The notes below the pieces were generated by a model. It was not told where the DNA came from, did not search any database, and saw nothing but the letters and a program-made list of their open reading frames with translations. A DNA stretch of 50,878 nt from Deltaproteobacteria bacterium (GTDB lineage: Bacteria; Desulfobacterota; Binatia; UBA9968; JAJDTQ01): the NCBI GenBank assembly GCA_028821115.1, contig JAPPHF010000041.1, positions 1 through 50,878 on the forward strand, read 5' to 3'. The translations under genes and the position numbers were made by a program. The first letter of the stretch is position 1, and each line of letters opens with the position of its first letter. Below, piece after piece: positions 2,412 to 50,878 of this stretch.

Positions 2412-4160
2412 ATGACTCTCGAGCTCAACCAATCGGCGCGCACGGTGGTGTTCCAGCGGCGGGTCAAGTCCCTCACCCACGAGATGGCCCAGGCGCTGTA
2501 CCGGAGCAGCCGCTCGCCGCTGATCAACAACGGCGATTTCGCGCTGGGATTCCTCGATGCACGGGGCCGGATGCTGGAGCAGGACGAGCACCTGCCGCTG
2601 ATGGCCTTTTCGTTGTATCCGGGCTGCGGCTACCTGATGGACTTCTTCGAAGGCGACATCCACGACGGGGACGTCTTCATCCACAACGACGTCTGGTGCG
2701 CCAACCTGCAGCACGCGGACGTCGGGTTCTACAAGCCAGTGTTCGCGGGCGGCGAACTGGTGGCGTGGACCGCCTGCCGGGGCCACTGGGCGGACATCGG
2801 CGGCGCGGTCAAGGGGACATGCAATCCCGAGGCGGTGGAAGTCCACCAGGAAGCGTTGCGGATCCCGCCGGTCAAGCTGTGGGAGAAGGGGCGGCTCCGG
2901 CGCGACGTGTGGGAGCTGATCTTCGCCAATGTGCGGCTGCGGGAGATCGTCGAGGCGGACGCCCAGGCGCAGCTGGGGAGTTGCGCCGTGGGGGAGAGGC
3001 GGCTGCGCGTTTTGATGGAAACGGAGGGCGCCGAAGCCTTTGCTGCCAACATCGAGCGCCTCTACGACATGACCGAGCGGCGGGTGCGGGCCGAAATCGC
3101 GGCGCTGCCCGACGGCGAGTATTTCGGCGAGAGCACCATCTACCAGGATGAGCCGGGCAACCCCTCGACCTCCCGGATTGCCGTCAAAGTGGTGATCCGT
3201 GGGGACAGCATCGCCTTCGACTTCACGGGCACGGACCCCCAGACCCCGACCTTCACCAACGCTTCCCTGACCTCCACCACGGCGGCGACCCTCACCACGC
3301 TGCTCTACCTGCTGAGCCCCGAGGTGCTCCACAACCACGGCCTGGTACGCTCCGTGGACATCCACGCGCCCGAGGGATCGATCCTGAACGCCTGCTATCC
3401 CGCGGCCACGTTCATGGGCAACAAGCTGTGTCAGCACACGGGCGAGGCCATCATGCTGGCGCTGCGGGAGGCGCTGCCGGATCGGGTCACCGCCCCCTGG
3501 GGTCGGCGCCTCTCCTACCGCATGACCGGCAAGGACCCGCGCAACGGGCGGGGCTTTCACGACATCTTCTTCCTCACCTACGAGGGCGGCGGCGCCACCC
3601 ACGGGGTCGACGGCTACAACCAGCCCGGACTCATGGGCGGCGGCAACGTACTGGCGCAGGACTACGAGACCTTCGAGGTGCAGAATCCGGTGCAACTCAT
3701 CGAGCATGAGTACGTCACCGACTCGGCCGGGCCGGGCCGCTGGCGCGGCGGCCTGGGGACCCGCACCCGGGTGCGCTACTACGGCGAGGAGACCGGCGGC
3801 TCCACTCACGGCGACGGCACCATGGAGCCGTCGCCGGGGGTGCTGGGAGGCGGAGCGGGCACGCTGAACAGCGTGGAGTTCCAGTTCCCGGGCGGCGCCC
3901 GCCGAAACGCCCACGCCATGGAAATCATCCCGGACATCCCGCCGGGTACGGTCTCGGTTCACCACGGCGGGGGCGGAGGCGGCTACGGACCGCCGGAGGA
4001 ACGCGACCTCGAGCGGGTGGACGAGGACCTGCGCAACGGGTTCATCTCCGCGAAGGCGGCCGTCGAGGTCTACGGCGCGGTGCTGACTCCGGACGGCTCC
4101 GCGGTGGATTTCGAGGCTTCGCGGAAGCGGCGAAAAGCCCCTACTTCCCGGTCTTCGTGA
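2412..4160 (+). CDS. Hydantoinase B/oxoprolinase family subunit
   Basis: Motifs SPLINNGDF, GHWADIGG, EVHQEALRIPPVKL, GPGRWRGGLG, GGGGGYGPP; 28 nt downstream of the A subunit. Confidence 0.93.
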   Translation: MTLELNQSARTVVFQRRVKSLTHEMAQALYRSSRSPLINNGDFALGFLDARGRMLEQDEHLPLMAFSLYPGCGYLMDFFEGDIHDGDVFIHNDVWCANLQHADVGFYKPVFAGGELVAWTACRGHWADIGGAVKGTCNPEAVEVHQEALRIPPVKLWEKGRLRRDVWELIFANVRLREIVEADAQAQLGSCAVGERRLRVLMETEGAEAFAANIERLYDMTERRVRAEIAALPDGEYFGESTIYQDEPGNPSTSRIAVKVVIRGDSIAFDFTGTDPQTPTFTNASLTSTTAATLTTLLYLLSPEVLHNHGLVRSVDIHAPEGSILNACYPAATFMGNKLCQHTGEAIMLALREALPDRVTAPWGRRLSYRMTGKDPRNGRGFHDIFFLTYEGGGATHGVDGYNQPGLMGGGNVLAQDYETFEVQNPVQLIEHEYVTDSAGPGRWRGGLGTRTRVRYYGEETGGSTHGDGTMEPSPGVLGGGAGTLNSVEFQFPGGARRNAHAMEIIPDIPPGTVSVHHGGGGGGYGPPEERDLERVDEDLRNGFISAKAAVEVYGAVLTPDGSAVDFEASRKRRKAPTSRSS

Positions 4161-49057: not shown

Positions 49058-49972
49058 TCAATCATACTGGGCGGCGCGGCGCTGCCGGAGGAATTCTCCC
49101 GCCACGATCGGTGGGAACTGCCGGGGACGGTGGTCGCCGCAGCAGGAGTCGATGCACCGGACCGTCACCTGGCTATTGGGGTTGTAGAAGAAGACGGTGG
49201 AGTACCGGGATTGCCTCACGTCCGCGGCGGGCAGCGCCACACGGTGCTTGGGCGACCGGAAGATGCCGTTGGTCCACCGCGATAGCAAATCCGCCACGTT
49301 GACCGTGACCGTGCCGGGAATCGCCGGGACGGTCAGCCACCGGCCGTCCACCAGCGCCTGCAGTCCCTCCACCGCGTCCTGGAAGACCAGCGTGACCGTG
49401 CCGTAGTCGGAGTGGCTGCCGGCGCGCAGTTGACCGGCGTCGGGCCGGCGCTCCACGGGCGGGTAGTGGAAGAACCGCACGGTGCTGGCGTGGGGGGCGT
49501 GCTTGTCGACGAAGAAGTCCTCCGGCGCCCCCAGAGAGAGCGCCATGGCCTGGACCAGCGCCGCGCATGCCCGGGCGCCGGCCTCGTGGAGTTCCAGGAC
49601 CGTCTCACGGAAACCGGCCACCGGGATGCTCCACCGGTCCAGCAGCTTCAGGCTGGCCTGGTTGAGGCTGAAGGACTCCTTGAGATCGCCGGGCCGTTGG
49701 GTATCGAGGTGCTCCACGGCGACGCCGACATAGCCCGAGATGACGTCGAGATCGGACCGCCCGATGGCTTCCTTGACCTCCCCCGGCAAGGAGAAGAACT
49801 CTTTGGCCTTAATCGACACCCGTTTGAGCAAGCCTTCCGGCAACGGCAGGTTGGCGACGTTGAGAAAGCCGTACTCGGCGCAGGCCGCGCGGATCTCGGC
49901 GGCGACGCGACGGCGCGCTTCCGGGTCCCCGTTCATGAACGGTTCAAAGTCGACTTGTGGTATGCCTGACAC
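49058..49972 (-). CDS. 2-oxoglutarate/Fe(II)-dependent oxygenase (isopenicillin N synthase family)
   Basis: IPQVDF, GDLKESF, HSDYGTVT (HxD), SPKHRV, RYSTVFF (RxS). Confidence 0.92.
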   Translation of the reverse strand: MSGIPQVDFEPFMNGDPEARRRVAAEIRAACAEYGFLNVANLPLPEGLLKRVSIKAKEFFSLPGEVKEAIGRSDLDVISGYVGVAVEHLDTQRPGDLKESFSLNQASLKLLDRWSIPVAGFRETVLELHEAGARACAALVQAMALSLGAPEDFFVDKHAPHASTVRFFHYPPVERRPDAGQLRAGSHSDYGTVTLVFQDAVEGLQALVDGRWLTVPAIPGTVTVNVADLLSRWTNGIFRSPKHRVALPAADVRQSRYSTVFFYNPNSQVTVRCIDSCCGDHRPRQFPPIVAGEFLRQRRAAQYD

Positions 49973-50120: not shown

Positions 50121-50726
50121 TCAAGCGTCTGCCGCCTCCCTCAACCGCTTGGCGTTCGCCTCGGTGACAAGCCGTTCCAATTGCTCGTAGGGCTCGGCGC
50201 CGACGATGGCCAGGCCCTCCGAAAGGTAGGTGGGGACGGCCGTCACACCGAGGGAGTGGCAGCGCTGCCAGTCGTCGTTGACGGCCTGCTGGAAGGGGCG
50301 CTCGGACAGCACGCGGCGCGCCTCCTCCACTGGCAGACCCGCCTCTTCCACCAGTTGGAGCAGCACGTCGGGCTCCGCGATATTGGCCGCCTCCACGAAA
50401 TAGGCGCGGTACACCGCGGCGTTGAAGGCGTCTTCCCGGCCCTCGCGTTTCGCCCATTTCGCCAGTTCTTGCGCCGAACGGCTGTTGTAGCTGAACTTGC
50501 GCTCGGTGAACGGGAGACCCTCGCGCTCAAGCATGACGTCTACCCGACTCGGGCCGTTCATGTTGCGCGGCTTGCCCTCGGGCGGGGTCTCGGGATGCAA
50601 TGGGAACTGGGTGTAGACGACGTTCAGGTCATGGTTCTGCCGCAGTTTCTCAATACGCCCGGTACTGAGATAACACCACGGTCACACGAAATCCGTGAAG
50701 ACCTCGAGGGTGACTTGATCGGCCAT
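50121..50726 (-). CDS. DsbA/FrnE-family oxidoreductase, selenoprotein (UPWC; Sec codon at 50682-50684)
   Basis: AAGGAG RBS, then MADQVTLEVFTDFV-TGA-PWCYLSTGRIEKL...FPLHPETP...GVTAVPTY. The TGA occupies the first Cys position of the family CPWC motif; 201 aa with readthrough. Confidence 0.88.
50640..50681 (-). promoter_or_regulatory. Bacterial SECIS-like hairpin directly after the UGA
   Basis: ccguggu/acugcgg lower stem, ucucaguac/guauugaga upper stem, G-rich apical loop cgggc starting about 21 nt after UGA. Confidence 0.75.
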
Positions 50727-50827
50727 CGGCATCTCCTTTTCTACGGTTCGTCAAGCTCGTTGGTCAGTCAACATGACGCGCCATGCTATCAGATCGGGCG
50801 ACGCCGTGCGAGAAGAGAGCCGCGCAA

Positions 50828-50878
50828 TGTTAGCGCAAAGCGATAATGTCCCCTTTTCAACAAAGCTAAGATGTCCCC
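50828..50878 (+). mobile_element. Probable terminus of an IS1202/IS481/IS21-like element, truncated by the window end
   Basis: Starts TGT, then two 18-bp near-repeats caaagcgataatgtcccc (50836-50853) and caaagctaagatgtcccc (50861-50878), 25 bp apart; AT-richer than the flank. Confidence 0.55.

Follow-up and report, generated by a model that had tools for sequence, protein, structure and literature searches.

A predicted selenocysteine codon and its downstream hairpin in a DsbA/FrnE-like oxidoreductase gene of Candidatus Binatia

In 2005 Zhang, Fomenko and Gladyshev described DsbA-like proteins with a UxxC motif (COG2761) as one of the selenoprotein families of the Sargasso Sea (PMC1088965), and DsbA-like selenoproteins were later reported from the genomes of Anaeromyxobacter, Desulfovibrio and Desulfotomaculum (PMC1794560). 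Reviews of 2022 and 2026 carry the family as 'DsbA-like protein (form 1), PF01323, UxxC' (PMC9312934, PMC13188914). FrnE proteins are thiol oxidoreductases of the cytoplasm that carry a CP(W/F)C motif, and in many of them, not in all, a C-terminal CxxxxC regenerates the active site (PMC8945050).

The gene that we analyse here lies at the end of a window of 50,878 nucleotides, which is contig C18 of a MAG of 2.2 Mb in 195 contigs, 77% complete. It is a member of DsbA-like protein form 1 (UxxC): the match is to the family description, and the defining features that could be tested in the gene itself were found in it. The first-pass annotation of the window had stated that DsbA-like UxxC selenoproteins occur in bacteria, and this is documented (PMC1088965, PMC13188914). 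Judging from the sequence and its conservation, the UGA at codon 15 is very probably decoded as selenocysteine (Sec), in a 201-residue cytoplasmic oxidoreductase of the FrnE branch with a U15-P-W-C18 active site.

Gene structure, protein family and selection on both sides of the TGA

Under translation table 11 the ORF track offers only a 159-aa ORF at 50121..50600 (-) with a TTG start, and the annotation was right to set its beginning at 50600. When TGA is read as U, the frame is open except at codon 15 and gives a CDS at 50121..50726 (-) of 201 residues plus a TGA stop (50123..50121), with the product MADQVTLEVFTDFV-U-PWCYLSTGRIEKL…. The Shine-Dalgarno sequence AAGGAG (50733..50738, (-)) precedes the ATG (50726..50724) by a 6-nt spacer. 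Both parts of the strong ribosome binding site and ATG at 50726 that had been proposed are present in the sequence, and they are kept in 23/23 same-genus loci; a second in-frame ATG, 6 nt upstream, is not conserved among these 23 loci. A promoter and terminator scan of the locus was uninformative.

Codon 15, the predicted Sec codon (50682..50684, (-)), opens the U-P-W-C redox motif of codons 15-18 (50673..50684, (-)). In the alignment, MADQVTLEVFTDFV-U-PWCYL stands against the DFVCPWCY of 56 Cys homologs, so that U15 is the first Cys, exactly where the TGA had been placed in the D-F-V-C-P-W-C motif at first reading; the comparison with Cys homologs which that reading had put forward thus finds a Cys opposite the TGA in all 56. 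U15-P-W-C18 also matches the CPWC of 46 full-length database proteins. Apart from C18 the protein has a single Cys, C155, and it ends in …KRLREAADA.

The protein matches the Pfam DSBA family PF01323 (E 3.9e-33, 115 bits against a cut-off of 25.6) over residues 6-185, which cover positions 1-188 of the 191 of the profile, and it is the only PF01323 member within the assembled part of the genome. NCBIfam has no specific model for it. The weak match to NF041057, at 20.5 bits, falls far short of the cut-off of 190 and involves the C-terminal 77 residues only, and we therefore rejected membership in the Rcas_1661/DsbG-like (seleno)lipoprotein family. The best PDB matches by sequence are Deinococcus radiodurans FrnE (5cnw, E 3e-17) and Streptomyces SCO1869 (E 1e-15). 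An AlphaFold2 model computed from an alignment of 46 Cys homologs (mean pLDDT 86.8) points the same way: in a Foldseek comparison it superposes on FrnE with TM 0.80-0.82 (E 4e-12), FrnE and SCO1869 are followed by YjbH, kappa-class GST, DsbM and HCCA isomerase, and periplasmic DsbA structures come far lower in the ranking (TM 0.5-0.6).

In the model, residues 5-11 form strand 1, and helix 1 opens with the active site, at residue 15. The N-terminus, MADQVTLEVF, is thus already strand 1, and neither the translation nor the model shows a hydrophobic leader, a signal peptide or a lipobox. A periplasmic DsbA of the E. coli type was rejected on both counts, the missing N-terminal hydrophobic leader and a DsbA TM far below that of FrnE. 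The FrnE-like fold together with the absence of a leader peptide indicates a DsbA-family protein of the FrnE type that resides in the cytoplasm. The C-terminal CxxxxC of FrnE is absent, as the protein ends at residue 201, but this is compatible with FrnE membership because some FrnE proteins also lack the motif (PMC8945050).

The segment of residues 45-75 is about 20 residues shorter than in D. radiodurans FrnE and 2-10 residues shorter than in the nearest Cys homologs, and it is the sole low-confidence stretch of the model (pLDDT 57-63). The helical insert had been described as shortened, and relative to FrnE it is; as a peculiarity of this protein the observation does not stand, since several Cys homologs are nearly equally short. 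For the same reason we ruled out a short insert as a trait linked to Sec: a nearly identical short loop in several Cys homologs makes it a trait of the subfamily, unrelated to Sec.

The TGA is found at codon 15 in 39/39 sequences of the Sec set, where TAA, TAG, TGC and TGT never occur. These comprise, besides the gene of the window, sequences from 38 other assemblies with 48-98% protein identity. Of these, 23 are from same-genus species labelled Candidatus Binatia (82-98%) and three from metagenomic contigs (62-65%); 11 more come from genomes of the order's two other families (49-55%), and the last belongs to a SAR324 MAG (48%). In the 23 species and the SAR324 MAG the protein sequence flanking the TGA is conserved, and none of the 39 has a frameshift or a further stop. 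More distant homologs, 56 in number, have TGC or TGT at this position. In a sample of 201 genomes of the class, all 22 orthologs of the order carry exactly the codon-15 TGA, with no Cys variant. A maximum-likelihood tree unites 38 Sec forms in one clade (support 100/97) and puts the SAR324 homolog beside Cys-form gammaproteobacterial proteins.

Selection was compared along the gene in 24 genus-level sequences. Upstream of the TGA, codons 2-14 have a pN/pS of 0.13 with a pS of 0.36, close to the values of the rest of the gene, codons 29-190 (pN/pS 0.19, pS 0.37); codons 2-14 are thus under purifying selection like the gene body and are therefore translated in this frame. Between the two, in codons 16-28, pN is 0, and with it pN/pS, and pS drops to 0.068.

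Public gene calls conceal this N-terminus. When 5.8 billion proteins were searched, the close relatives recovered (about 50, at 62-98% identity) were without exception called at 133-179 aa and missed the N-terminus, and full-length relatives came up only at 50% identity or less, with CPWC. The calls of the close relatives are truncated because their DNA has TGA at codon 15. The expectation that automated annotation would truncate the gene is thereby borne out across the clade.

It is conceivable, though we hold it rather doubtful, that the Sec form is ancestral and obligate in the lineage and not an occasional variant; the fact that all orthologs found in the three families of the order have UGA, with no Cys variant among 22, would fit such a history. 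The similarity of the SAR324 hairpin core, described below, in a homolog that the tree sets beside Cys forms, would then point to an old cassette of Sec codon and SECIS, with later Sec-to-Cys conversions or a passage from one phylum to another. The joint change of residues 21 and 25 with the stem, also described below, would fit the same reading.

The gene context offers little beyond the genus. The downstream neighbour encodes a 2OG-Fe(II) oxygenase of 304 aa (49058..49972, (-); PF03171 and PF14226 matches), and this gene adjoins the Sec gene in 22/23 same-genus loci. Of the 11 order-level genomes with the Sec gene, seven have no such oxygenase and four have it elsewhere, hence adjacent in 0/11, and in the clade of 62-65% identity other neighbours stand beside the Sec gene. 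A functional module with the oxygenase was rejected on these grounds, and we take the adjacency, limited to the genus, as synteny by descent.

The hairpin downstream of UGA-15

Counting the U of the UGA as position 1, the 47 nt that start with the UGA (50638..50684, (-)) fold into a two-stem hairpin with an MFE of -18.9 kcal/mol, the candidate SECIS element. The lower stem, of 7 bp, pairs positions 4-10 with 39-45 and leads into an internal loop. The upper stem, of 8-9 bp, pairs positions 15/16-23 with 29-36/37; it starts 11 nt after the UGA and carries the 5-nt apical loop CGGGC (50657..50661, (-); positions 24-28), which starts 20 nt after the UGA. The core UCUCAGUAC-CGGGC-GUAUUGAGA (50648..50670, (-)) is, from its conservation across orthologs, the likely SelB-binding hairpin. 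The two-stem hairpin with a G-rich loop after the TGA, which had been noticed at first reading, is hence recovered in a 47-nt fold with CGGGC as its loop, and it is conserved in 38 other assemblies. The bSECISearch model of Zhang and Gladyshev (2005) reportedly allows a window of 16-37 nt from the UGA to the loop. The small G-containing apical loop and the 20-nt distance fit the features of bacterial SECIS elements (PMC1088965).

Folding energy does not single out the hairpin. Against dinucleotide shuffles it has a z of -1.8, which is not significantly better, and the same region folds with a mean of -15.4 kcal/mol in the 56 Cys homologs versus -17.3 kcal/mol in the Sec forms. Energy was for these two reasons discarded as a discriminator, and the case for the hairpin is made by conservation and covariation. 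An Rfam scan of the region with E up to 10 returned no SECIS or other family, only two chance matches.

The conservation is that of nucleotides. In codons 19-27 every nucleotide is invariant in 24 distinct genus-level sequences; outside these codons, just 28 of 171 degenerate codons are invariant in the same sequences. Codons 16-28 form the 13-codon window with the lowest synonymous diversity of the gene, and 0 of 100,000 permutations gave a window as low. The core CUCAGUAC-CG(G/U)GC-GUAUUGA(G/A) is the same, or nearly so, in those Binatia orthologs whose proteins are 49-98% identical, and a nearly identical core of 21 nt is also found in the SAR324 homolog, at 48% protein identity. Such a nucleotide-invariant hairpin behind codon 15 is absent from the Cys forms.

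The two helices differ in how well they are kept. Among 25 distinct sequences the upper helix is 96% paired and shows two compensatory pairs, and sliding the partners lowers its pairing to 31-41%; for the lower helix the figure is 71%, and the top 3 bp alone are conserved. These 3 bp lie within invariant Trp, Cys, Lys and Leu codons, and the lower stem has no conservation beyond the genus.

The compensatory changes come from one order-level clade (L111-113, L115 and L116), which has LVTGRVE in place of LSTGRIE. There, Ser-AGU is replaced by Val-GUC and Ile-AUU by Val-GUC, and in the stem A19-U33 becomes G-C, U21-A31 becomes C-G and the wobble G20-U32 becomes U-U. Confined as they are to a single clade, these changes probably represent one evolutionary event. 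Residues 21 and 25 switch jointly, from Ser/Ile to Val/Val, since the stem pairs their codons with each other. At these two residues, to judge from the aligned sequences, the hairpin appears visibly to dictate the evolution of the protein.

Selenocysteine machinery and competing readings of the TGA

The first-pass annotation took the gene to be that of a Sec-using organism. On contig C179 of the same MAG, selA, selB and selD lie side by side in one operon, and each passes its curated cut-off (587, 383 and 371 bits). SelD is itself a Sec form, with an in-frame TGA at the catalytic position (…EVKAAG-U-AAKLGP…), and this TGA is followed by a hairpin, GGUGCAGGUCCUGCACC, whose sequence closely resembles the SECIS of E. 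coli fdhF. The operon, the conserved TGA and the constrained hairpin together support that earlier reading.

With the tRNA the outcome was mixed. In the MAG itself, the best match to RF01852 scores 40.5 bits, below the cut-off of 47, and is a tRNA-Leu; ARAGORN found 28 tRNAs in all and no tRNA-Sec in this assembly; and when the regions around tRNA-Sec in two same-genus relatives were compared with it by BLAST, only a dispersed 40-nt repeat and unrelated paralogous matches came back. A tRNA-Sec above the cut-off is present in 19 of the 21 genomes searched, including 12/12 of the same genus (73-78 bits); the other two are the MAG of the window and one order-level relative. The absence of selC from the MAG is best explained by incomplete assembly and, with the MAG 77% complete, is no argument against the use of Sec, although part of the doubt about Sec decoding in this particular genome stems from it. 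Of the machinery that had been named as a check, selA, selB and selD were thus found, but tRNA-Sec was not recovered from this assembly.

Could the locus be a nonsense pseudogene, or could the 159-aa ORF from the TTG at 50600 be the only part expressed, with a decaying sequence as its upstream N-terminus? Table 11 yields that ORF alone, the public gene calls make the same truncation for about 50 relatives, and no tRNA-Sec was found in the 77%-complete MAG, all of which would agree with such a reading. However, the TGA is fixed in 39 sequences of 48-98% identity without a frameshift or another stop, the pN/pS of 0.13 in codons 2-14 denotes purifying selection, against a pseudogene and an internal start alike, and the ribosome binding site and ATG are conserved. 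Moreover, the product from 50600 would, according to the model, be deprived of the redox motif and of the strand and helix with which the thioredoxin fold begins. We consider this reading extremely unlikely. The chance that sequencing or assembly has turned a TGC or TGT into this TGA, in what would be an ordinary CPWC FrnE-like enzyme, is practically negligible: although Cys forms predominate in the wider family, the same codon reads TGA in 38 independent assemblies, which come from different studies and include several closed chromosomes, and behind it stands the nucleotide-invariant hairpin that the Cys forms do not have.

The UGA might also be read through without Sec, as near-cognate Trp or Cys or under a reassigned code, the hairpin then acting as a stimulator of read-through or in mRNA stability or attenuation. 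That the hairpin matches no curated RNA family would be in keeping with this. Yet the gene ends in TGA and TGA acts as a stop elsewhere; codon 15 is a redox Cys position, the classical site of a Sec/Cys pair; the genome has a dedicated selA-selB-selD operon and a Sec-type SelD; and the small G-containing loop, 20 nt after the UGA, fits a bacterial SECIS (PMC1088965). Read-through of this kind seems highly improbable to us, and the decoding of UGA-15 as Sec is the reading that we retain.

From the anatomy of the locus and the standard bacterial pathway, Sec insertion could proceed as follows. With the ribosome at UGA-15, the downstream upper stem-loop would be bound by SelB-GTP carrying Sec-tRNA(Sec), and SelB would deliver Sec in competition with release factor 2; at the terminal TGA, which has no such hairpin, translation would terminate. 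By homology to FrnE and other thioredoxin-fold proteins, the selenolate of Sec15 would be the exposed nucleophile that attacks a disulfide or an oxidised thiol of the substrate. Cys18 would then resolve the mixed selenylsulfide, and an external reductant would recycle the resulting Se-S bond. As there is no C-terminal CxxxxC relay, D. radiodurans FrnE and this protein must be recycled in different ways.

The gene leaves the knowledge of selenoprotein families and of Sec decoding unchanged, the family having been known since 2005. Its interest lies elsewhere. In public databases the products of this gene and of 38 or more orthologs, among them the ones on closed Binatia chromosomes, exist only in N-terminally truncated form, without the catalytic motif, and as a consequence the redox capacity and the selenium dependence of an uncultured lineage are under-reported. 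Candidatus Binatia would join the Sec-using lineages, bringing a Sec-type SelD and several paralogous DsbA-like selenoproteins. The locus also exemplifies how a recoded UGA can be told from a pseudogene without experiments, by selection on both of its sides and by frozen synonymous sites in the SECIS, and how an RNA hairpin may force coupled amino-acid substitutions.

Comparison with described selenoproteins, FrnE proteins and SECIS elements

With DsbA-like form 1 the gene shares the PF01323 domain, Sec at the first Cys of a CxxC motif and widespread Cys homologs, as well as a stem-loop right after the UGA with a small G-containing apical loop. For both, the function is assigned by prediction only. 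Unlike the published examples of form 1, the group formed by the Binatia order and a SAR324 relative is not named in PMC1088965, PMC1794560, PMC9312934 or PMC13188914, and the 2026 review of selenoproteins makes no mention of Binatia. In public protein databases the Binatia group is represented by truncated calls only.

The resemblance to FrnE (DR_0659; 5cnw, 5co3) and SCO1869 (3gl5) is one of fold, with TM 0.79-0.82, and of location, none having a signal peptide; FrnE also has its active site at the start of helix 1, in a CP(W/F)C-type motif (PMC8945050). The protein differs from these relatives by Sec in place of the first Cys and by an identity of only 27%, and its segment after strand 2 is about 20 residues shorter than in D. 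radiodurans FrnE. The CxxxxC of that FrnE (residues 239-244) is absent here, as it is from S. roseofulvus FrnE (PMC8945050). With the DsbG-like/Rcas_1661 proteins (NF041057) the common ground is wider, that of a thioredoxin-fold UxxC selenoprotein of the DsbA/DsbG group, but the Rcas_1661 family consists of exported lipoproteins, unlike the protein described here.

As to the RNA element, the codon-15 hairpin and the SECIS of E. coli fdhF both lie within the CDS, immediately 3' of the UGA, and both have a G in the apical loop. Liu et al. (1998) are said to have defined the minimal SelB-binding element of fdhF as an upper stem-loop 11 nt after the UGA, the same spacing as here. The upper stem includes a non-Watson-Crick position, like that of fdhF (here G20-U32, which is U-U in one clade). 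The loops differ, CG(G/U)GC here and GGUC in fdhF, and the hairpin GGUGCAGGUCCUGCACC behind the selD TGA of the same genome is far closer to fdhF than is the hairpin behind codon 15.

Coupled replacements in the SECIS core

The SECIS of the DsbA-like selenoprotein gene lies within its coding sequence, and the codons of residues 21 and 25 pair with one another in the SECIS stem. Comparison of codons 19-27 of the window gene (50673..50648, minus strand) with those of the order-level homologs (L111-L116) reveals that these two residues switch jointly, from Ser/Ile to Val/Val, because of this pairing. This is a clear case of coupled amino-acid replacements dictated by RNA structure.

Distribution of the Sec and Cys forms

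A nearly identical SECIS core, CCUCAGUACCGUGCGUAUUGAA, is found in the homolog of a SAR324 MAG (L040, locus positions 3043-3090), which belongs to another phylum and encodes a protein of only 48% identity. Yet in the maximum-likelihood tree this protein clusters with gammaproteobacterial Cys-form proteins (support 100/87). The sharing of the core by a protein that groups with Cys forms suggests either an ancient Sec cassette followed by later Sec-to-Cys conversions, or lateral transfer. The tree of this protein set requires at least three independent Sec/Cys switches. Four distant DsbA-like paralogs (L118, L119, L120 and L121; 27-31% identity), which come from further families of the class and, in one case, from a genome within the same order, also carry TGA at the first active-site Cys, in a U-P-F-C motif, and the hairpins located 3' of it are unrelated.

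Gene surroundings, tRNA calls and a dispersed repeat

In the closed chromosome of a 95%-identical relative of the same genus (L020), a toxin-antitoxin pair (1951-2848), made up of a HigB-like toxin and an HTH antitoxin, is located immediately upstream of the Sec gene; the window stops at 50878, short of this region. ARAGORN called two unusually long tRNAs in the window's own genome, a 100-nt tRNA-Ala (C12:5013-5112) and a 94-nt tRNA-Gly (C138:13526-13619), which may contain introns or else be false calls. A repeat of about 40 nt, CCGTTCGTCCTGAGCGTAGCGAAGCGAAGTCGAAGGACG, is scattered over at least 25 contigs of the same MAG (for example C179:1-31, C179:83-122, C106:14-53, C105:2397-2436, C176:11622-11664 and C188:9385-9424), frequently less than 100 nt from a contig end and in some cases as inverted pairs; it probably caused the fragmentation of the assembly. 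In a same-genus relative (L101), one copy (1672-1711) is located about 80 nt past tRNA-Sec.

The Sec operon and the selD hairpin

The own genome carries selA, selB and selD (L004, L005 and L001) in a single operon (C179:1414-5910). Its SelD is a selenoprotein too, with the motif KAAG-U-AAKLGP and the TGA at C179:4911, 3' of which lies the hairpin GGUGCAGGUCCUGCACC. Since this hairpin and that of the DsbA-like gene are dissimilar, one SelB must accept two rather different loops in the host organism. Unlike the hairpin of the DsbA-like gene, that of selD closely resembles the E. coli fdhF SECIS.
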